Assembly (NCBI GenBank): GCA_045544715.1
Contig: JAZPZN010000108.1
Span: forward strand, 8,163-72,162
Direction of reading: 5' to 3'
Origin: Oscillospiraceae bacterium
GTDB taxonomy: Bacteria; Bacillota; Clostridia; Oscillospirales; Ruminococcaceae
DNA length: 64,000 nt
Shown here: one piece after another, positions 36,681-48,801 of the stretch
Numbering within the stretch: position 1 is the first letter of the stretch
How the letters are laid out: the number at the start of each line of letters is the position of its first letter
Notes under the pieces: model-generated
Told to the model about the DNA's origin: nothing
Database searches by the model: none
Seen by the model: only the letters and a program-made list of their open reading frames with translations
Program-made: the position numbers and the translations under genes

Positions 36681-38177
36681 TTATTCAGACTTTTCCTCAG
36701 CGATATCTTCCTCATCATCTTCCTCATCGGGAACTACGTTCTGCTGACGGCTGAGGAACATCTTGATTGCCTTTACAAGACTCTTGAAATTCATACCGAT
36801 CACCGCAAGGAACATCAGAACATTTATCACATTCTGCAGTAATCCATACTCCATGAACATTACCGACAACGCAAGCAGTGCAAGCACCACAAGGTTTGTC
36901 GCCATACAGCGCCAGTCTATCTCCATATAAAGAAGCTTTTTGGTATCGATAACACGGAAAACAAACACCAGCACATAGCTTGCAAGTGTAGCAATAGCCG
37001 CACCGATGACTCCGATAGTGTTCAGCAGGATAAGATTAAGTATGATATTTGCACCTGCACCTACAACCGATGTGACAAAGCTGCGCATGGTCTTGTTGCT
37101 GCTTTCATAGATGCTGCTAAGAAAACTGTTGAAGCTCTGAAAAACCACTGCAAACAGAAGCACAGGCACGTAAAAATATGCATCCTCAAAGCCCTCAGAG
37201 CCAAACAACGGCATGATTATCGGGCGGATGACCAGCATTATTCCTGCCGCTGCCACATACATGATAGTCTGCATCATACAGAATACGTTTGAATAGAAAT
37301 TCGATACAGTTCGTGAGTTGCGCTCTTTTATTGCAGACATATGCCATGCACGGGAAAAAATACCCACAATGGTCGCCGCAAGATTAGGAAACTTGTATGC
37401 AAACGAGTACACGCCATTCGCAGCACTGCCGAAAAAGCCAGTGATCATAAATGTATCAGATACGTTCACTATCCACCACATTACAGTGGTGGGCATTAGG
37501 GGAACGCTGTATTTCAGCATATCGCTGAGATTCTGCTTTGTGTATCGAAGCGGTCGATAATCATTGTATAGCTTTGCTTTAAGCGTCAAGAACACGATAG
37601 AGCACAGATCACCCATAGATACCGACAGCACATAACCAACTACCCCCAGATCAAACACTGCCAGAAACAGCAGATTAAAGAGGATAGTTGCCACTGTCGT
37701 CAGTATTCCGTCAAGCGCAAACAATCCAACTCTGCCCCTTGCACGGACATAGATAGACATAGTAGCCTTGATGCCACCCGTGCAAACATACAGAAATATC
37801 AACCACTCATAGCCTGCCAGCATCTCGATAAAGCCGATGAGCGGCACAAACGCTGCAAATACTATGAGACCTACAAATGTAACATCAATACCTATCGACA
37901 ACACACGCTTCTTGCTGTGTATGGCATCCTGTACAACAACACCATCGTCGCCTTTTTTGGCCTTTATTCCATAGCGAAGCACGCCCTCGCTGATGGAGAG
38001 CGTCACCACTGATATGAGAAGTGCCGATGCATTGATGATGTTTGTGGCATCACCAAAGCCTTCAGCTCCCAGCATACTTGTGTAAAAGCCAAGCATGAAA
38101 TACACAAGCAGCTTAGACGAAAACTGTCCTATGGCCAGAACGATAGTATTGTTAGCCAGCTCACGATATTTGTTCAT
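36681..38177 (-). CDS. Wzx/RfbX-type oligosaccharide flippase
   Basis: LANNTIVLAIGQFSSKLL, ~14 TMs, MLKYSVPLMP..MWWIVNVSDTFMI, GVYSFAYKFP, GAAIATLASY. Confidence 0.85.
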   Translation of the reverse strand: MNKYRELANNTIVLAIGQFSSKLLVYFMLGFYTSMLGAEGFGDATNIINASALLISVVTLSISEGVLRYGIKAKKGDDGVVVQDAIHSKKRVLSIGIDVTFVGLIVFAAFVPLIGFIEMLAGYEWLIFLYVCTGGIKATMSIYVRARGRVGLFALDGILTTVATILFNLLFLAVFDLGVVGYVLSVSMGDLCSIVFLTLKAKLYNDYRPLRYTKQNLSDMLKYSVPLMPTTVMWWIVNVSDTFMITGFFGSAANGVYSFAYKFPNLAATIVGIFSRAWHMSAIKERNSRTVSNFYSNVFCMMQTIMYVAAAGIMLVIRPIIMPLFGSEGFEDAYFYVPVLLFAVVFQSFNSFLSSIYESSNKTMRSFVTSVVGAGANIILNLILLNTIGVIGAAIATLASYVLVFVFRVIDTKKLLYMEIDWRCMATNLVVLALLALSVMFMEYGLLQNVINVLMFLAVIGMNFKSLVKAIKMFLSRQQNVVPDEEDDEEDIAEEKSE

Positions 38178-38219: not shown

Positions 38220-38675
38220 TTATTTTTCTCTAAGCTCTTTGAAAAAATCAGTAAGTATATCACCGCACTGCTGCATAAGCACACGGCTGCGCACATACGG
38301 GATATGTGTAAATTTCTCCTCGAACATGCATATTACAGAAGCGCAGGCGCCGTTCTTTTCATCGAAAGCGCCATACACTACTCTTTTAAGTCGGGAATTC
38401 ATAATAGCTCCTGCGCACATCGGGCAGGGCTCCAACGTTACATAAAGCGTGCAACCGCACAGCCTCCACTGACCCAAGGCCTTCGCTGCCTGCTCGATAG
38501 CTATGATCTCAGCATGGGCGGTGGGCGACTGAAGCTGCTCACGCAGATTGTAGCCCTCGCCTATGACCCTGCCGTCAGGAGCAACAACTATCGCTCCCAC
38601 GGGGCATTCGCCAAGATCATACGCTTTGTTTGCAAGCTCAAGGGCTTTCATCATATATTCTTCGTCAAGTGTCAT
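38220..38675 (-). CDS. tadA: tRNA adenosine(34) deaminase
   Basis: ECPVGAIVV, TAHAEIIAI, TLEPCPMCAGA, VVYGAFDEKNGA, LTDFFKELR. Confidence 0.9.
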   Translation of the reverse strand: MTLDEEYMMKALELANKAYDLGECPVGAIVVAPDGRVIGEGYNLREQLQSPTAHAEIIAIEQAAKALGQWRLCGCTLYVTLEPCPMCAGAIMNSRLKRVVYGAFDEKNGACASVICMFEEKFTHIPYVRSRVLMQQCGDILTDFFKELREK

Positions 38676-38677
38676 AG

Positions 38678-41600
38678 TTATATGCGTCTGAATGCCTGCA
38701 CGATTACAGTAAGCACCAGCCATGCGAGGTTATATAGCATAAGTATATACCAGCTGAACATACCATAATTAGTAAACAGGGCAAATACGAGCACCAACAG
38801 TATACCGAGGGCAATGCCTGCCACCTCCATCGTACAGCCGAAAAGGATCTTTTCACGCATTGCTTTAGTTCCGCAGACTGCAGCACACAGTGCAGAAAAT
38901 GTGCCATCGCAGCTGACAGCTGCAGAGCCCTTGGAGGCATACTTTGTATGCTCCTCATAAGCCTCATGTGCCTCGTAGGGGAGTACACGCAGCTTTGTCA
39001 CCTCAATATCGAACAGATCGGCAAGCAGAGCATCATTAACAAATCCATCGACCGTCTTGACAGCAAGGCCCACATCGCTCTTATACAAGCGTCTGAGGCT
39101 CTCCTTCACCTGAGGATTTGCCTTGATATCAAAGAAGAACAGTATGCACACCTCGTTGTTGATGGCGAGATATACCACCTGCTGCTCACGCTCATTGAGC
39201 TTGTTAACGATCTCCATATCGGGAACTATCATATTGTGCTGCTTCATAAGCTCACGGGAACCTAGATATACACGGCGGTTCTTTATCCAGCCGCTTACAC
39301 CGAGGCCGTTTTCGTATACGCAGTTTTCAACGTGCTGCAGCAGAGATCTCTTTCCTCTGAGCATAGTATAAAATGCATCAGCGGTCACGCTGCCCGCTGC
39401 CACTGCAAGGCTCGATGCGTATATTAGAGCCTCGTCGATATCAATATGCTGTCTGCCATGCTTGTTGTAATCCCAGATGTTCGCAATAACCACAGTACCT
39501 GCAGGGAAAAGCGTGCTTGCATCTGTCAGCACCGCATCTGTCTCGCTGAACTCGTCAACAGCGTTGTAGCCAAGCACCGCAGCATTCCTTGCATTGAGCT
39601 TCTTTGAAGCAGTCAGCATAGGCAGCATAACGATGAGCGAACCAACAAAGGTAGCCCCCACTGCAAGCACTGCACTTGCCACTGTTGCCGCCCACGATGC
39701 ATTGTTCAAAGCGTAATCGCTTTCGCCCATGATATAGGCGATGAGACCGCCAGCCACTGCAAAGGCGAGCACTACAGGGGTAACTGCACGTGATATCCTG
39801 TCGGATGCGTCCTCGCAGTATGTAGAGATGATGAAATCACACAGCATCTCGGTCTTGTGCATGGAGGACACTACAGGCTGTCCGTTTGTCATATCCTTTG
39901 CGAGCAGCTCGCTGTCGCTGTCGCAAAAGCTCTCCATAAAATACTTTGCACCATCACGGGATACAAAACGGAAATTGTTCTGTGCCGCCTTGACCGTACA
40001 TAGCTTCGAGATAGTATTGAAACAAAGTGCTACCAGCGATACCGCAATATAGATATGCGCCCTGCCACGCTGAACATATTCAGGCTGAGCAAGATACAGC
40101 ACCACCGAAAGCAGCGCACCCGTATGAGCCAATGCGCACAAAGTATCGCCGTCAGGCTTCAAACGCACCAAGCGTGAAAAGCCGTTAGTGATAACGCTTG
40201 AACAAGCCACAAAGCTGAGAGCGCCAATCACAAGATAAGCTACCACATGACCTTCGGGATTAAAACGCCTGTTGACAAGCGGAGAGATAAACTCTATATC
40301 AAGATTAAGATCATTGATAAGTCCGACAAAAATAGCCGCAAGTGCCATTATTGCGAGAATGATCAGTCTGCCCACCAATCCCTTTCCTGAGCGGTTCAGA
40401 CGGTCAGTGATAACATTCTCGTCATCAAGGTCGATGACCTCCTCTTCCTCGTCGTAGTCATCCTCTTCCTCCTCTGCAACGGTATCCATGTCACTTTCAA
40501 GGTCACCCATCACAAACTCGGATATCTTGCGCCTGCGCTTGCCTGCAAGCTCATCCGCACGGCGCACGGCATCAACAGGATCCTGCTTAGGCAGGAGAGC
40601 GGAGTCAATGATCTTCGCTTCATCTATATTAAGTACATTCTTCGGAAGCGTGCCTGCATTGCTGACATCGGTGAGCACAACAGTCTGCTCCTCACGAAGC
40701 TGCCTTTCACGCTGCTCCTTTATCTTTTTATTCATCTGCTCCACAAAGGAAGAGCTGCTGCGACGCTCGCTCTCACTTGCATAAGCAGTGTCATCTTTAT
40801 CCTCGTTAGAGGTCTGCAGCACATCCTCAATGCGCTGTGCACTCTTTTTGCGGCTTGTAACGGGAGAGTATTCCTTAACGTGCTCCTCCCCTGCAATCTT
40901 CCTGAAATCATTTCCTGCCACCGCAAGAGTATCACCGCCAACAGGCTCAGCAGCCTTCAGGTCGTCAGCCGCCTTTGCCAGCGAATCCATGGGGTTTATA
41001 GAGTCGAGCAGCTCATCAGGGCTTTCCGCATCCATATCCGCCTGCAGCAATGCACGCTCAATGGCTTCGATACGCTGCTGCTTTCTCATCTGCTGAGTAG
41101 CAGTGGATACAAGATCGCCCCTTGTATGGAATATTATATCATCATCGCCGCCCGATACCTCAGGCTTAACAAACGGCTGCACATACTCGCTCTCCGACTG
41201 CACGATCTCGCCTGTCCTGTCAGCAAACAGCTTGGATGCCTCATGCGGAGATGCTATCTCACCCGTAAAACCATCGGGCGCAACAAAAGGCTCAGGCTCT
41301 GCCGCTTTTGCGGCAGCTTCTGCGGCTCTTGCAGCCTCTCTTGCGGCAGCTTCGGCCTCCATGCGCTTTTCCTCGGCTATGCGTATCTCTTCAAGGCGCT
41401 TCTCCTCAGCACGCTTTTCCTCTGCAAGACGTTTCTCCTCAGCCTTACGACGACGCTGCTCCTCTTTTTCCAGCTGCGCCGCACGGCGTGCTTCACGCTT
41501 CTGCTCTGCCTTATCAGCAGCGCTTTCCTCTCGCTCGTAGGATACAGGCTCTGCCGCCTCCACCTCTGTATGAGAGTCTGAGGATGCCTTCATGGCTGCA

Positions 41601-41734
41601 GAAAGCTCATCGCCACCAAGTATCTCGGTAACACTGGGTGTACTACTGCTGTAGCTCCTTTGCGGATCGGGGTCGCTGTCACGTTTTTTTGCGATCTCCG
41701 CCAGGATATCGTCAACGCTGTAATTATCAGACAT
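38678..41734 (-). CDS. Large membrane protein: acidic/charged N-terminal half + degenerate P1B-type ATPase-like C-terminal half
   Basis: See findings: KPDGDTL, DAVLTDASTLFPAG, GLGVSGWIKNRRVYLGSRELM, VVYLAINNEV, VKTVD, C-terminal TM pair. Confidence 0.65.
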   Translation of the reverse strand: MSDNYSVDDILAEIAKKRDSDPDPQRSYSSSTPSVTEILGGDELSAAMKASSDSHTEVEAAEPVSYEREESAADKAEQKREARRAAQLEKEEQRRRKAEEKRLAEEKRAEEKRLEEIRIAEEKRMEAEAAAREAARAAEAAAKAAEPEPFVAPDGFTGEIASPHEASKLFADRTGEIVQSESEYVQPFVKPEVSGGDDDIIFHTRGDLVSTATQQMRKQQRIEAIERALLQADMDAESPDELLDSINPMDSLAKAADDLKAAEPVGGDTLAVAGNDFRKIAGEEHVKEYSPVTSRKKSAQRIEDVLQTSNEDKDDTAYASESERRSSSSFVEQMNKKIKEQRERQLREEQTVVLTDVSNAGTLPKNVLNIDEAKIIDSALLPKQDPVDAVRRADELAGKRRRKISEFVMGDLESDMDTVAEEEEDDYDEEEEVIDLDDENVITDRLNRSGKGLVGRLIILAIMALAAIFVGLINDLNLDIEFISPLVNRRFNPEGHVVAYLVIGALSFVACSSVITNGFSRLVRLKPDGDTLCALAHTGALLSVVLYLAQPEYVQRGRAHIYIAVSLVALCFNTISKLCTVKAAQNNFRFVSRDGAKYFMESFCDSDSELLAKDMTNGQPVVSSMHKTEMLCDFIISTYCEDASDRISRAVTPVVLAFAVAGGLIAYIMGESDYALNNASWAATVASAVLAVGATFVGSLIVMLPMLTASKKLNARNAAVLGYNAVDEFSETDAVLTDASTLFPAGTVVIANIWDYNKHGRQHIDIDEALIYASSLAVAAGSVTADAFYTMLRGKRSLLQHVENCVYENGLGVSGWIKNRRVYLGSRELMKQHNMIVPDMEIVNKLNEREQQVVYLAINNEVCILFFFDIKANPQVKESLRRLYKSDVGLAVKTVDGFVNDALLADLFDIEVTKLRVLPYEAHEAYEEHTKYASKGSAAVSCDGTFSALCAAVCGTKAMREKILFGCTMEVAGIALGILLVLVFALFTNYGMFSWYILMLYNLAWLVLTVIVQAFRRI

Positions 41735-41801: not shown

Positions 41802-42536
41802 TTATTTGCGGTGCTTTACAACCTCATACATAAGGATGCCCGCAGAAACCGACGCATTAAGCGAATTTATCTTACCATACATAGGCAGCGACAATATCAT
41901 GTCGCAGTTTTCACGCACTAGTCTGCCAAGCCCGAATCCCTCCGAACCGATCACCAGTGCAACACCTCCGCTGAGATCGGCCTTATCATAAGGCTCACCA
42001 TCAGCTTCAGCTCCGAACACCCATATATTATTGTTTTTCAACATTTTTATCGTATCCACAAGATTAGAAACCCTTGCCACTTTCAGCCAGGCTGCTGCAC
42101 CTGCAGATGTCTTGTAGACCGTCGCATTCAGAGATGCGCTCCTGCGCTTTGGAATAATAACTCCGTCTGCGCCTGCCGCCTCAGCGGTACGGATGATCGC
42201 ACCGAGATTGTGCGGATCCTCTATCTCATCAGCTATGATGATAAAGGGAGGCTTGCCCTTTTCCGCAGATACCGCCAGTATCTCATCTACTGTCGCATAG
42301 CTGCAGACCGCCAGCGATGCTGCAACACCGCCATGCTTTTGAGTGCCTGCTACGGCTGCAAGCTTATCCTCATTGACCTCCTTGATAACAACACCACGCT
42401 GTTTTGCAAGGGCAACTATTTTTCCGAGAGATATGCCACGCTGTACGAACACCGTATCAAGCTCAGTATCCGAGCCGAGGGCCTCCGTCACTGCATTTCT
42501 GCCATATATTATCTTGTTGTCGATTTCTCTATCCAT
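41802..42536 (-). CDS. rlmB: 23S rRNA (Gm2251) 2'-O-methyltransferase (TrmH/SpoU family)
   Basis: IYGRNAVTEAL, KHGGV, IEDPHNLGAIIRTA, GSEGFG, SLNASVSAGI; promoter TTGCAA-17-TATAAT at 42615-42587. Confidence 0.92.
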   Translation of the reverse strand: MDREIDNKIIYGRNAVTEALGSDTELDTVFVQRGISLGKIVALAKQRGVVIKEVNEDKLAAVAGTQKHGGVAASLAVCSYATVDEILAVSAEKGKPPFIIIADEIEDPHNLGAIIRTAEAAGADGVIIPKRRSASLNATVYKTSAGAAAWLKVARVSNLVDTIKMLKNNNIWVFGAEADGEPYDKADLSGGVALVIGSEGFGLGRLVRENCDMILSLPMYGKINSLNASVSAGILMYEVVKHRK

Positions 42537-42678
42537 ATTTTTATCCTTTACTGCAAGTTTTAGCTTCGCATACATATACATTGTATATTATAGCACAATC
42601 CACACCTTATTGCAAGACTTAACAGCGACCCGTATGTGAATTTTTTGCGAATTTTGACAGCTTTGCATCAAAAACAAA

Positions 42679-42702
42679 AGCGGCAAGGCCATCCTTGCCG
42701 CT
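42679..42702 (-). terminator. Intrinsic terminator after pilT
   Basis: agcggcaagg-ccat-ccttgccgct with T-rich tail on minus strand. Confidence 0.75.
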
Positions 42703-42732: not shown

Positions 42733-43791
42733 TCAGGAAGATCTGATATTGAGCAGCTTCTCCATTTCAGTCCTGTCAGTACAATACTCAAGGCAGGTGT
42801 CAGAGCTGATAATATTGCGCTCAAACAGCTTATAAAGGCTGTCGTTGAGAGTACACATTCCCTGACGGGTGCTGGACTGCATGATAGACTCCATCTGGGG
42901 GATCTTATTGGTGCGAATGAGGTTCTTCACGGCATCCGTACCCAGCATGATCTCAAGCGCAGCCACTCTGCCGCTGCCATCCATTTTAGGCACAAGGCTC
43001 TGCGCAACGATACCCTGAATGATGTTAGCCAGCTGCGAGCGTGCCTGCTCACGGGCATGCACAGGGCACGCATCAATGATACGATCCACGCTCTGTGCGG
43101 CACTGGAGGTATGCAGTGTTGCGAATACCAAGTGTCCTGTTTCGGCAGCTGTCAGCGCAAGAGAGATAGTCTCATAGTCACGCATCTCACCGATAAGCAG
43201 AACATCGGGATCCTCACGCAGTGCACTGCGCAGCGCAGCATCAAAGGTGGGAACATCTCTGCCTACCTCACGCTGATGAACAGTTGCCTTATCCTGTGCA
43301 TAACGATACTCAACAGGATCCTCGATCGTGATGATGTGGCATGCACGGCTCTTGTTGATGTGATCGATAACAGCTGCAAGCGTTGTGGACTTACCTGCAC
43401 CCGTAGGGCCTGTTACCAGTACAAGTCCACGCTTTTTATTTGCAAGCTCAGTGAGAACAGAAGGCATCCTAAGATCCTCAAGCGAAGGGATATTTGCATT
43501 CAGCAGACGGATGCTTGCAGCAAGCTTACCGCTCTGACGGAATACATTAACACGTTGCCTTGCACCATTTTTCAGCTCAAAGCTGAAGTCGATATCGTTG
43601 CCCTCAGTCAGCTGCTTCTCCTGCTCAGCAGTGAGTATGGAGAGGATGGTACGGTTTACTACCTGATCGCTCAGCTCGGTGTATCTGCGCAGCTCGCCGT
43701 TGACCCTCACGACTGTAGGCGCACCTACAGTAAGGTGGATATCAGAGGCGTTCATCTCACGAGCCTGCATTATGAATTCTTCAAATGTCAT
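42733..43791 (-). CDS. pilT: Type IV pilus retraction ATPase
   Basis: ASDIHLTVGAP, GLVLVTGPTGAGKSTT, TIEDPVEY, HQREVG, ALREDPDVLLIGEMRD, ETGHLVFATLHT, AVKNLIR (AIRNLIRE-like). Confidence 0.93.
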   Translation of the reverse strand: MTFEEFIMQAREMNASDIHLTVGAPTVVRVNGELRRYTELSDQVVNRTILSILTAEQEKQLTEGNDIDFSFELKNGARQRVNVFRQSGKLAASIRLLNANIPSLEDLRMPSVLTELANKKRGLVLVTGPTGAGKSTTLAAVIDHINKSRACHIITIEDPVEYRYAQDKATVHQREVGRDVPTFDAALRSALREDPDVLLIGEMRDYETISLALTAAETGHLVFATLHTSSAAQSVDRIIDACPVHAREQARSQLANIIQGIVAQSLVPKMDGSGRVAALEIMLGTDAVKNLIRTNKIPQMESIMQSSTRQGMCTLNDSLYKLFERNIISSDTCLEYCTDRTEMEKLLNIRSS

Positions 43792-43813: not shown

Positions 43814-44359
43814 TCATTTAATCTTGAACTGGATGCCGCTTGCCGAGAAGTAAACTTCATCAGACATATTTGCAATACGCTGATTAACAGCACCGAGAAT
43901 CTGCCTGTAGAGCGCAAGTCTGGGATTTTCGGGAGTTACAGAGAAACCCGTTTCTACCGTGATGATTATCATGCTGCCATCTATCTCCTCAATGCGTTCA
44001 AACATTTCGGTGACATCCTTGATGATCTTCTTCTCGATTGCCTTTTTCTTGTCATCGTCGGTCTCCTCATCGGCTTCGCACATAGCGTCAATAGTGCGCA
44101 TGGTGTAAGTAGACAAGGCATCAAAAATGACAAACTTGTGATCGAAAAAGTTCTCACTGGGACTATCGGTGATGCCGGTCACTATATCCCACTCAACGCC
44201 GTTCTGCTTGTTGTCGAATTCGATACGTCGCTTTGTATCAGGATCGATGCTGTCGTTAGCACATAGATACAGCACATAGTCGCAAGCCGACAGATATGTA
44301 GCAGCCCATCTTGATTTTCCGCTGGCTGCGCCGCCCGTGATCAGTATGGTTTTGGACAT
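43814..44359 (-). CDS. CobU/CobP-like (adenosylcobinamide kinase fold) protein with degenerate guanylyltransferase motif
   Basis: ITGGAASGKS P-loop, ETGFSVTP, R..LG.VNQ.IA...DEV....SGI.FKIK; RIEFDN in place of RIxxH. Confidence 0.75.
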   Translation of the reverse strand: MSKTILITGGAASGKSRWAATYLSACDYVLYLCANDSIDPDTKRRIEFDNKQNGVEWDIVTGITDSPSENFFDHKFVIFDALSTYTMRTIDAMCEADEETDDDKKKAIEKKIIKDVTEMFERIEEIDGSMIIITVETGFSVTPENPRLALYRQILGAVNQRIANMSDEVYFSASGIQFKIK

Positions 44360-44608
44360 TTGCAATCATTCCTTTCGTTTATTTTCATAAATAGGCATAG
44401 CCAAAACTGGCATAATAGCCAAAAACTTTGCGCAAAACGCAAAAAATCTATACATATTATATCATCTTCAATCAAAAAAGTAAAGGGCTTTTCTAAAAAT
44501 ATTGCATGATAACGAATACATCTTTGAAAATGCGCCTTTTTCCTTTACTTTTTCGCCACAATATGATATAATAAATATGTATGTGCATTATAAAAACAGG
44601 AGATAAAG

Positions 44609-45154: not shown

Positions 45155-45261
45155 TTTATTACAAAACACTCTTTTTTCTTGCATCTGACAACAAAATATG
45201 CTATACTATATTAGTTAAGGCAGTTGCCTACTAAATAAACAAATATGTGAAAGGAGCCATG

Positions 45262-48200
45262 ATGATAAAGGAAAATCAAAAGCTGTTCAATGCAATAAAT
45301 ATCATCAGCGATGCAGTCATGGCTGTTTTTGCAATGATGACCTCGTACCTGCTGGTATTCCACCTTCTTGGTTTCGAGGAAAACTATGCCCTGCAAGATT
45401 ATTTGAAGCTTGCAATACTGTTTATGCCTATCCAGCTGATGACATTCGGCTGTATGGGGCTTTATGACTCGTTCAGAACAAAACGCTTCACCAAAGAGCT
45501 CGAGAAACTGGTAGGTGCATTTGCAATAGACGCAGTGCTCATCATCACGATGCTGTACGTTGTGCACATCTTCAACTTCTCACGCTGGGCACTGTTCATA
45601 TTCTTCCTCATCGATCTTACTATGGTTGCGCTCAAGCGCTTCATACTGAGGAAGGTGCTGAAACAATACCGTAGCAGCGGCTTTAACCTCAAAAACGTTG
45701 CTGTGATCGGCGGCGGAGAAGCTGCAAGAGAATATATCAAAACCATAAACGAGGAAAAAGAGTTTGGATATAAATTAGCAGGTTACATATCCGACGAGGA
45801 GATACCGGGGGCAAAGCAGCTGGGCTTCTACAATGATATGCTGACCGTGCTTGAGGAAAACAATTTCGATGAGGTGGTATGTGCCCTCGGAAACGATAAC
45901 AAACTTCTTTCAGAGGCGGTTGAAGCGTGCGAAAAAACAGGCACTAAAATATCTGTTATACCCACAATATATAAATATATATCCTCCACACCCTCGGTCG
46001 ATATGGTGGGAAGTATACCGCTCTTGAACATCAGGCGTATACCCCTCGACAATATAGGTAATGCATTTGTCAAAAGAGCGATGGATGTTGTCGGCTCATT
46101 GGTGCTGATAATCCTCACCTCACCGATAATGTTGATAAGCGCATTGATAATAAAGATAACAATGGGCGGCAAAGTAATATTCAAGCAGCAGCGTGTCGGA
46201 CTTAACAAAGAGCTGTTCACCATGTACAAGCTGAAATCCATGAAGGATAATGCCACCTCCGACACCGCATGGAGCACCGATAACGACCCACGCAAAACCC
46301 GATTTGGCTCGCTGATACGAAAGCTGTCGATAGACGAGCTCCCCCAACTGTTCAACGTACTCAAGGGTGAAATGAGCCTTGTAGGCCCCCGCCCCGAAAT
46401 ACCCTTTTATGTCAACAGCTTCAAAGAAACCATACCGCTATACATGATAAAACATCAGGTAAAGCCCGGTATGACAGGACTTGCCCAGATAAACGGCTAT
46501 CGTGGAGATACCTCGATAGAAAAGCGAATTGAGTTCGACATCCAGTATATCGAAAACTGGAACCTGTTTATGGATATCTCGATACTGCTTCGCACCGCTT
46601 TGAGCGGATTTGTCAACAAAGAAAAGCTGAAAAAGAAAAAAACTACATACGTTCCGGAGAAATATCTAATGAAAAACGAGAAAAAAATCGATATGCTGTC
46701 ATTGGCTATCTTCCTGCCTGCTTTGATCGCTATCGCCATCATACCCACGATAATGCAGGCGACCTGCGTATATTCAGACCTTATCGAAAGTCAGGCACTG
46801 TTCACCGGTACTGTCGTTGAATCAACCGGTTCATATCAGATGGTCGATGTGTACTCACAGGCGAAAGCGTTCGGCATCGTTGTGATCGCAATGGTGATGC
46901 TCGGCATGGCACTGCTGTGCTGCGCATATCTCTTCAGAAAGATCGAAAAACGCTCGCTCATTTATGTTGGAGCATCAGTTGCATTCGTTGTGATGGCACT
47001 GATCTCTGCGCTCTGCTCTGACTATCGTGAGGTGGCTTTCAACGGAGTTTTCGACAGAGCCGAAGGCTTTTACACCACTGCATGCTACTTTGTGCTGTTC
47101 CTGTTCACCATGTACGCATTCAGAAAGACGCAGAATTTCAGATTTGTGGCACTGGCATTATTCGTGTGTGTCGCTATCAACGGTATCATAGGCATATTCC
47201 AGTTTACAGGCAACAATCTGGTATATGAAGATTGGTTCAGTGCCTTTGTTGTAGACCCCGATTACCGTGATGTTATGATGCTGCAAGAGGAGCAGATGAC
47301 AGGCACCCTCTACGGAGCCCTTTATCACTACAACTATGTGGGCAGCTTCTGCGGACTTATCGTACCACTGTTCACCGTTATGGCGATCTTCTCCGAAAAA
47401 TACTGGCAGAAGATAATATTCGCCGTATTTGATGTGCTGGCACTGTTCATGCTTTTCGCAAGCTCCGCACGAAGCGGTTTAGTTGCTTTGGCTGCCGCTG
47501 CAGTCGTTGCGCTCGTCATTTTCGGACGTGTTATCATCAGTCACTGGAAGCCTGCTCTTGTCATCGTCGGCGGTGCCGCAGTGATCTTCGTCGGTGCAAA
47601 CTTTGCCCTTAACAACGCTCTGTTTGACCGTATACCATCACTGATTGAAGATGTTGTTGTATTTATCACACCATCCGATAAAAATGCAGATCTGTTCTCT
47701 ACCCTCCCCATACGTGAAATAGATCACAATGCCGACGGCAGTGTTACATTTGTATCACAACAGGACGAAGTCACCATCTCTTTTGACGAGGTATCGTTGG
47801 ACTACACCTTTGCCGACAGCGAAGGCAATGCAGTAGGGCTTATCGAAGGAGCAAACAGCTCTTACACATTCGATGATGATCGTTTCAAGGGCATCAGCTT
47901 CAAGCTGGAGCAGTTAGACCCCACCGCCACCCAGCAATACGACGACCTAATGACAGTATGGTTCAATAACGACACAAGCAGCAAGATGACATTCCTACTG
48001 CACAATGCAAAGCAGATACATCTCATAGATACCCGCACTGGCGAGCGTCTTATACCCGAAAATGCTGAAGCTATCGGCTTTGAGGGCAAAGAAAAGCTCG
48101 GTTCATCCCGTGGATATATCTGGTCACGCACTCTGCCAATGCTGAAAAACTGTCTGCTTATCGGCTATGGTGCAGACACCTATGCTTACGAGTTCCCTCA

Positions 48201-48801
48201 GAACGACATTCTGGCAAAATACTATTCCTACGGCGAGGGCTTCTTCATCACCGTCGACAAGCCTCATAACCTGTACCTGCAGATATTCTATTCGCATGGT
48301 CTGATAGCCTTTATCGCATTCCTAGTTATATGCATATTCTATCTTGTAGACTGCTTCAGACTATACGCTCTGAAAAAGACCTACCGCATAGAGCAGATAT
48401 ACGGCATCTCTGTAATGCTTGGTGTTGTGGGATATCTGGCATCAGGAATGTTCAACGACTCGGTAGTGTCTGTTGCCCCCGTATTCTGGGTGCTCCTCGG
48501 TGTCGGAGCAGCGCTCAACACTATCAACCGCCGCATGGATAAAGCTCCCGAGGATGCCGATATCGACGAGCCCGAGTTTGTATCCAGTGCAATAAAAGCC
48601 GAAGTCCGCACCGCCCAGAAGGACGAAAAGCTTGAGCAGGAAGCAGCAGAGCTGCTGGCAAAGATACAGGCTGACAAAAATGCAAGAAGAAAGAGCAGAA
48701 CACAGAATATTACAAGGGATGACCTTGAAGCTCTGCGCATGAGCATCAGCACGCTCAGACCTGACAGCAAGCCCTCTGACAACGATACAGATAATAATTG
48801 A
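45262..48801 (+). CDS. Fusion: undecaprenyl-phosphate hexose phosphotransferase (WcaJ/CpsE-like) + O-antigen ligase/Wzy_C-like domain
   Basis: N-half: 4 TMs, CoA-binding-like VIGGG, [69 protein letters not shown]. C-half: many TMs, [29 protein letters not shown]. Start likely 45262 after AAGGAG. Confidence 0.85.
   Translation: [1179 protein letters not shown]

Follow-up and report, generated by a model that had tools for sequence, protein, structure and literature searches.

We analyzed a 64,000-nucleotide stretch (hereafter, the window) of contig JAZPZN010000108.1 from the Oscillospiraceae bacterium assembly GCA_045544715.1. It contains a tightly packed reverse-strand unit of four genes: rlmB, an open reading frame (ORF) of 1018 codons, tadA and a flippase-like gene (Table 1). 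The 1018-residue product, here called the pseudo-pump, had been read in a first-pass annotation, made from the letters alone, as a degenerate P1B-type ATPase with a long charged N-terminal arm. Our analysis reproduced the ORF boundaries and the gene order exactly. Each string quoted in that annotation was also located: KPDGDTLCAL at residues 526–535, VVYLAINNEV at 853–862, KTVD at 893–896, GLGVSGWIKNRRVYLGSRELM at 810–830 and VDEFSETDAVLTDASTLFPAG at 726–746. The last of these holds TDASTLFPAG, in which D738–L742 correspond to nucleotides 39523–39509, as the annotation had stated.

Table 1. Features of the pseudo-pump gene and its operon (positions are those of the window; res, pseudo-pump residues)
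Feature	Position	Strand	Basis
Whole ORF, 1018 aa: arm (res 1–435) and pseudo-P1B-ATPase core (res 436–1018)	38678..41734	(-)	intact frame
Conserved N-terminal tip helix (res 5–19, YSVDDILAEIAKKRD)	41678..41722	(-)	family alignments, AF2
Candidate ER/K-type single alpha-helix (res 72–144, ~11 nm if fully helical)	41303..41521	(-)	AF2, composition, imperfect 33-nt DNA repeat
Conserved arm blocks (res 211–295: IRKQQRIE..RALL..PDELLDSINPM; DTLAVAGNDF..VKEYSPVTSRK)	40850..41104	(-)	invariant columns in alignment A1; AF2 helices 211–261
Juxtamembrane conserved segment (res 386–454: basic helix, acidic run, IDLDDENVI..RL into MA)	40373..40579	(-)	alignments; AF2 helix 436–475, pLDDT >90
Helices MA, MB, M1, M2 (res 455–581); G518 kink; K-P-D-G-D530-T as MDT equivalent	39992..40372	(-)	hydropathy, family alignment, hhalign
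Actuator (A) domain remnant (res 582–650), ~50 aa including TGE loop deleted	39785..39991	(-)	hhalign gap; AF2 two strands and short helices
Helices M3, M4 (res 651–710); CPC replaced by A694-T695-F696; P705 kept	39605..39784	(-)	alignment, hydropathy, hhalign
Degenerate phosphorylation motif D738-A-S-T-L-F-P-A-G (canonical D-K-T-G-T-L-T-x-G)	39497..39523	(-)	alignment, hhalign
N-domain homologue (res 751–870), HP replaced by S782-V783	39125..39484	(-)	profile, alignment, hhalign
P-domain second half (res 871–950): T894-V-D896 (TGD), P919-Y-E-A (PxxK), C942-D-G-T-F-S (GDGxND)	38885..39124	(-)	profile, alignment, hhalign
Helices M5, M6 (res 951–1018)	38681..38884	(-)	hydropathy, AF2
rlmB (23S rRNA Gm2251 2'-O-methyltransferase), family-wide upstream neighbor	41802..42581	(-)	TIGR00186, 2.7e-70
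AGGAGG Shine-Dalgarno, 7 nt ahead of pseudo-pump start codon	41742..41747	(-)	perfect match
Promoter-like site TTGCAA-17-TATAAT with TG (extended -10), upstream of rlmB	42587..42615	(-)	consensus match only
Strong terminator after pilT, ahead of promoter-like site	42679..42702	(-)	consensus match only
tadA (tRNA adenosine-34 deaminase), conserved start 2 nt past pseudo-pump stop	38220..38675	(-)	domain scans, locus comparison
Wzx/MurJ-superfamily flippase-like gene, last of unit, closer clade only	36681..38177	(-)	domain scans, locus comparison

The pseudo-pump descends from a CopA-type (P1B) P-type ATPase, and the homology proposed by the first-pass annotation is borne out far above chance by four kinds of comparison. 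Although no Pfam model matches the protein, the NCBIfam CopA model matches residues 644–928 (E = 8.9e-12). A profile of 14 full-length homologues aligns with the Legionella pneumophila CopA (LpCopA) structure 3RFU across the N- and P-domains (E = 4.3e-8), and hhalign pairs an 80-member family profile with the canonical CopA of the same genome at 97% probability, in an alignment of 459 columns that runs from helix MA to the P-domain. The fourth line of evidence is structural. Hydropathy and an AlphaFold2 (AF2) model built with 80 diverse relatives place eight transmembrane (TM) segments in a 4+2+2 layout (455–473, 497–515, 531–549 and 561–581; 651–669 and 689–707; 969–987 and 997–1015), which is the P1B pattern MA-MB-M1-M2, M3-M4 and M5-M6, with two extra N-terminal helices and two helices after the P-domain. 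The core, residues 436–1018, is predicted at a pLDDT (predicted local distance difference test) of 93–98. Modeling and a Foldseek comparison, the check that the first-pass annotation had suggested, found both the P- and the N-domain fold: a HAD-like Rossmann P-domain with an inserted N-domain lies between M4 and M5 (Foldseek probability 1.00). Searched against the Protein Data Bank, the model retrieved P1B pumps at all of the top 14 ranks, the best being LpCopA 4BBJ (E = 1.6e-18), followed by 3RFU, Archaeoglobus fulgidus CopA (AfCopA, 7R0G), ATP7B, HMA4, ZntA and CadA, and then by KdpB and the P2/P3 pumps. A second AF2 model, of the 24%-identical relative P0241, gave the same order of secondary structure, the same Foldseek ranking and a pLDDT of 91–98. 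Fold and descent thus place the protein in the P-type ATPase superfamily, and its topology also places it in the P1B lineage.

The catalytic motifs have fared differently from the fold. To describe them we use counts over 144 cluster representatives (alignment A2). The absence of CPC and GDGxND, reported in the first-pass annotation, was confirmed by the family alignment and by hhalign, and DKTGT is missing as well. The phosphorylation Asp is kept in the pseudo-pump as D738 but is not conserved in the family, being present in 75 of 144 members and replaced by N, S, E or T in the remaining 69. A family alignment, which the annotation had also suggested as a search for conserved replacements, reveals that the position of the DKTGT Lys (A739) is Ala in 110/144 and that the L-F-P of the degenerate motif is nearly invariant. 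In the M2–M3 loop, which measures 69 aa, hhalign opens gaps opposite most of CopA ~245–325, including TGE295, and this deletion is family-wide. The annotation's statement that there is no TGE actuator motif therefore holds for the A-domain, with the amendment that TGE strings do occur, by chance, at residues 157 and 174, within the disordered arm. CPC is replaced by a stretch with the family consensus [SA]-P-F, M5 and M6 form the least conserved region of the protein, and the metal-ligand positions of CPC, M5 and M6 are not conserved. PxxK, at P919–A922, has lost its Lys, and the GDGxND motif retains its first Asp in only 19/144 and has lost the Asn and the second Asp. What persists is a scatter of acidic and polar positions: the Asp of TGD (D896, 142/144), the Asp of the M1 'MDT', which reads G-D530-T (137/144), and a set of near-invariant residues near the membrane, D530, K577, N587 and D642. 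No Pfam domain, and hence no CxxC-bearing HMA domain, was found in the arm of the pseudo-pump or in those of 46 diverse relatives.

The family can dispense with the nucleophile, and neither the TGE loop nor the Lys, Thr, Asp and Asn ligands remain; the pseudo-pump therefore very probably forms no phospho-enzyme and would be unable to run the E1–E1P–E2P–E2 cycle; this step from lost motifs to a lost cycle draws on the established mechanism of P-type ATPases. As none of the catalytic motifs by which membership is judged is intact, the protein should not be classed by function among the P1B ATPases. NCBI calls members 'hypothetical protein' and JGI calls many of them 'Cu+-exporting ATPase'. If the latter name were right, the family would comprise working Cu(I) or other metal pumps with unusual motifs, for which D738 and D896 could be cited; given the loss of the Lys, Thr and Gly of DKTGT, of the TGE loop, CPC, PxxK and GDGxND, and the replacement of the Asp in 69/144, we consider this very improbable. 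The same genome moreover encodes an intact CopA (contig C87, 836 aa) with the HMA motifs MSCAACS and CGHCE and with TGE, CPC, DKTGT, HP, TGD and GDGIND all in place, so copper export is covered by another gene. The JGI label is therefore not tenable for the family, and as a systematic mis-annotation in JGI/IMG it could inflate copA and copper-resistance gene counts in metagenome surveys. CopA is one of four canonical P-type ATPases in the genome (contigs C37, C45 and C87), of which two carry CPC in M4 (640 and 836 aa), one carries PEGL (929 aa) and one has no recognized M4 motif (813 aa); counting the dead homologue, the superfamily has five members in this genome.

Within one clostridial order, the family is a near-universal, single-copy core gene. 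When 1.84 billion cluster representatives were searched exhaustively, 779 clusters matched at E<=1e-30, all of them built alike, with a variable arm ahead of a ~530-aa core. Among the 251 reference genomes of the window's order (presumably GTDB Oscillospirales), a single-sequence search found the family in 208 and a family profile (E<=1e-35) found it in 232 (92%). The profile matches cover 200/214 of the high-quality genomes and 131/139 of the genera, and only one genome departs from a single copy. The related loci come from Oscillospiraceae, Ruminococcaceae, 'Ruminiclostridium' and 'Eubacterium CAG' metagenome-assembled genomes of gut and rumen. Beyond the order the family is not seen: only 4/301 genomes of a phylum-wide sample match, all inside the order, and when the profile was searched across the class, all genomes inside the order scored at least 200 bits over the whole model, with no match outside it exceeding 100 bits. 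The weak, two-piece matches found there fall in ORFs of ~740–880 aa and, judged by that length, look like genuine pumps, as expected.

These distributions, together with the substitution pattern, bear on whether the gene is decaying. Compared with an 87%-identical homologue (~90% in the core), the ratio of nonsynonymous to synonymous substitution rates (dN/dS) is 0.063 overall, 0.091 in the arm, 0.046 in the core and 0.038 in the P/N region, values that are rough because dS (~1.3) is near saturation. The gene is thus, from codon comparison, under strong purifying selection and not in decay, and even the arm is selected rather than junk. That the ORF is a decaying pseudogene or a gene-calling artifact, an idea that the loss of catalytic motifs and nothing else would recommend, is refuted by its 1018 intact codons, the perfect Shine-Dalgarno sequence, the dN/dS of 0.06, its single-copy presence in 92% of the order's genomes and AF2 cores with pLDDT >90. 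Selection of this strength implies that the pseudo-pump does something important other than pumping. One family member (G323:C38:4173-6554) has a single in-frame TGA inside an otherwise full-length match, for which sequencing error, recent pseudogenization and recoding are all possible explanations.

The conserved TM region raises the question of transport by another route. All eight TM helices are kept, as is the helix-breaking P705 in M4, D530, K577, N587 and D642 are near-invariant, and ~40% of relatives carry C-x-C-[SA]-P-F in M4; each of these would suit a channel, a carrier or a lipid-facing device that works without a phospho-enzyme cycle. Such a function is nonetheless improbable, as the ligand positions of CPC, M5 and M6 are not conserved, M5 and M6 vary most, no energy-coupling mechanism remains and the pseudo-pump itself has no Cys pair. 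In the divergent relatives the M4 motif more precisely reads C-[IV]-C-[SA]-P-F (C691 in 56/144, C693 in 60/144, P695 in 78/144), and it may be a residual or a new metal or redox site.

Conservation is highest in the N-domain: of the 31 positions that alignment A2 shows to be conserved at >=90%, 18 fall there. Its most conserved block reads YE-x-G-L-G812-V-S-G-W816-I-x-N-R-R821-V-x-L-G825-S-R827-E-L-M-x-x-H833. In CopA and ATP7B, the Glu and His of the P1B E...HP element are needed for ATP binding, and GxG and GN(R) are the adenine-pocket elements of the N-domain. GxG reads G810-L-G812 in the pseudo-pump, with G812 in 144/144, and GN(R) reads G825-S-R827, with G825 in 144/144, Asn at 826 in 88/144 (Ser in the pseudo-pump) and R827 near-invariant; H833 is kept as well. 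These retained elements make it conceivable that a remodeled N-domain pocket binds a nucleotide or another small molecule without hydrolysis and thereby alters conformation or partner affinity, i.e. that the protein is a ligand or nucleotide sensor. We regard this as unlikely, however. In E...HP the Glu gives way to A777, at a position that varies, and the His to S782, where 141/144 have Ser or Gly; just 61/144 retain the first Gly of GxG; and an arm-less clade described below alters E808, D809, W816 and R821.

The N-terminal arm (residues 1–435) is 39% charged, carries a net charge of -44 and is predicted by AF2 to be mostly disordered. Its description in the first-pass annotation as acidic stands; its description as low complexity stands only in part, as the arm contains a conserved tip and several conserved blocks and is under purifying selection. 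Across the family the arm ranges from 15 to 1080 aa (median 325) and its sequence is hypervariable, with the blocks at 211–295 and 386–446 conserved inside the closer clade. A Pfam scan of 46 diverse members found no domain in any arm. The AEEKR-rich stretch at 41290–41520 that the annotation took for a single alpha-helix (residues 72–149) largely coincides with a single unbroken AF2 helix at residues 72–144 (pLDDT ~85). This segment is 90% E/K/R/A/Q with six hydrophobic residues and has 12 i/i+4 and 20 i/i+3 opposite-charge pairs, so that model and composition are both consistent with an ER/K-type helix, whose sequence is not conserved across the family.

At the extreme N-terminus, the first 14 residues (MSDNYSVDDILAEI) fit a tip motif found family-wide, [YF]-S-[VLI]-D-D-I-L-x-E-[IVLY]. 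AF2 predicts a helix here at modest confidence, residues 7–19 at a pLDDT of 60–70 in the pseudo-pump and residues 8–17 at 60–66 in P0241, as would be expected for a motif that folds upon binding something outside the model. The model of this short-arm member brought no gain in tip confidence (60–66) and hence no evidence for docking in cis. A tip profile run over all ORFs of the genome scored just the pseudo-pump (21.6 bits), and no second copy of the tip was found in the proteome. Mimicry of the L7/L12 N-terminal helix was considered and rejected, L7/L12 not being among the top 25 of the tip-profile scan.

A short conserved tip, a hypervariable spacer and a large, rigid, conserved membrane body are together typical of a tether. 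Our best reading, which we advance tentatively, is therefore that the pseudo-pump is a non-catalytic membrane scaffold or tether. The dead pump would serve as a stable membrane anchor or docking platform, and the arm as a flexible tether of variable length, in this case including the ~11-nm ER/K helix. The acidic amphipathic tip (S-[VLI]-D-D-I-L-x-E) would capture a cytoplasmic partner and hold it at the membrane. A second binding site may lie on conserved cytoplasmic surfaces of the core, composed of N-domain residues 807–835 (the block around G812–H833), the L-F-P loop, D896 and the M1/M3 acids D530, D642 and D645, which correspond to the copper-entry platform of CopA. In its outline, a P1B-derived, non-pumping protein with a long, mostly disordered acidic arm and a segment resembling a single alpha-helix, best read as a scaffold, the first-pass interpretation is retained; the partnership with the flippase and the role of polar organizer that it also proposed are not supported.

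Several observations weigh against a scaffold. The N-domain nucleotide pocket is partly retained (G812, G825, N826, R827), and it is not evident what use a pure scaffold would have for it. Compared with solved pumps, the models reach global TM-scores of just 0.4–0.55, with a root mean square deviation of ~11 Å; in the predicted models the P-type fold is certain and the arrangement of the domains is close to that of no solved state. Finally, in one family of the order (f126) the proteins measure 543–550 aa and lack both arm and tip, with no separate arm ORF, yet their genes are still paired with rlmB; the core must accordingly serve some purpose that is independent of the arm. These forms keep D530, K577, N587, D642, P653, P705, G722, L-F-P, G812, G825-N-R827, Y855 and D896 and replace E808, D809, W816, R821 and, in 6/9, H833. 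Were the tip to dock on this replaced patch of the core, the two might be expected to co-vary; among the 144 representatives they do not, in that tip-less or short-arm members mostly keep the E808–H833 patch (some 'short' forms are perhaps truncated gene calls), and f126 is probably one divergent lineage. At the f126 loci (L125–L133), the arm-less gene is followed by one whose product starts MSGHSKWKNIMHKKEK and may be YebC/TACO1-like, and most of the RlmB proteins there are longer (261–313 aa), carrying a basic N-terminal extension that RlmB lacks in arm-bearing genomes.

Gene order offers a further angle on function. rlmB lies immediately upstream in 75/75 related loci that extend far enough, in members at 31–37% identity with different downstream genes, in order-level members at 22–30% identity and in the arm-less clade, where it overlaps the pseudo-pump gene by 4 bp in 3/9 loci. 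This persistence, and the strongly acidic arm (net -44), would accord with a role linked to RlmB or the ribosome, in which RlmB, late pre-50S particles or ribosomes are held at the membrane by the arm or the core. We think such a role rather improbable: gene order conserved among housekeeping genes need not imply physical contact, the arm-less clade retains the pairing without an acidic arm, no fusion or domain evidence joins the two proteins, and the tip profile matches no ribosomal protein of the proteome, nor any other, with L7/L12 outside the top 25. The bolder proposal, that a pump stripped of catalysis has been reused as a membrane receptor for RlmB, late pre-50S particles or ribosomes through its acidic arm and tip and/or its remodeled N-domain, is improbable; were it true, ribosome maturation or placement would be linked to the membrane across a whole order of gut Clostridia.

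The downstream genes are less constant. The tadA–flippase pair follows in 69/80 close loci and in no distant locus. The flippase was thus rejected as a family-wide partner, and the partnership suggested by the first-pass annotation is not supported, because the pair is confined to the closer clade. Consensus matching found no convincing internal terminator within the rlmB–pseudo-pump–tadA–flippase unit. Elsewhere in the window, a PilT/PilU-type retraction ATPase gene (42733–43791 (-); TIGR01420, 1e-131) adjoins a CobU-like gene (43814–44365 (-)), with no further pilus genes within ~10 kb. An 1184-aa ORF at 45247–48801 (+) fuses an initiating sugar-phosphate transferase (CoA_binding_3 and Bac_transf) to a multi-TM Wzy_C region (O-antigen ligase/polymerase-like) with a charged C-terminal tail, the domain calls being those of the orthologous gene in locus L134.

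P-type ATPases rank among the best-understood membrane enzymes. In this family such a large enzyme has naturally become a pseudo-enzyme, and has done so in an order to which many abundant anaerobes of gut and rumen belong. The family also defines testable targets in the tip peptide, the pocket of the N-domain and the connection with RlmB. A literature search returned no description of this family or of any free-standing, catalytically dead bacterial P-type ATPase family.

Among known systems, the pseudo-pump most resembles the P1B-1 Cu(I) pumps, L. pneumophila CopA (3RFU/4BBJ), A. fulgidus CopA (7R0G) and human ATP7B. With these it shares the eight TM helices, the P- and N-domain folds, the MB Gly kink, the M1 'xDT', the N-domain G-x-G ... 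G-N-R-x-L-M, the TGD Asp and the M4 Pro. It differs from them in lacking DKTGT, TGE, CPC, HP, PxxK and GDGxND, in its A-domain of ~69 aa, in the long disordered acidic arm with a conserved tip that stands in place of an HMA domain, and in TM-scores of only ~0.4–0.55. In its proposed way of working, an analogy may be drawn with ZipA and with the C-terminal linker and peptide of FtsZ, where a hypervariable disordered linker joins a membrane anchor or body to an amphipathic peptide that is short and conserved. The likeness would be one of architecture, tip, linker and anchor, with no relation in sequence or fold, and the anchor of the pseudo-pump is a 580-aa pseudo-enzyme, not a single helix. The guanylate cyclases of Apicomplexa and ciliates, which carry a P4-ATPase-like domain, employ a P-type module beyond plain ion pumping; these are, however, eukaryotic, enzyme-fused and of P4 type, and are homologous to the pseudo-pump at the level of the superfamily only. 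For Plasmodium falciparum GC-alpha, the title of a preprint describes the activity of the ATPase domain as essential (10.1101/2020.09.07.285734). The closest bacterial remark that the literature search turned up concerns Mycobacterium tuberculosis CtpH and CtpI, whose N-terminal halves are degenerate and P-type ATPase-like according to AlphaFold models (PMC13460109). There, the uncharacterized degenerate half is joined to a P2-type pump that is canonical and presumably active, whereas the pseudo-pump stands alone, is of P1B type and forms a large order-wide family.

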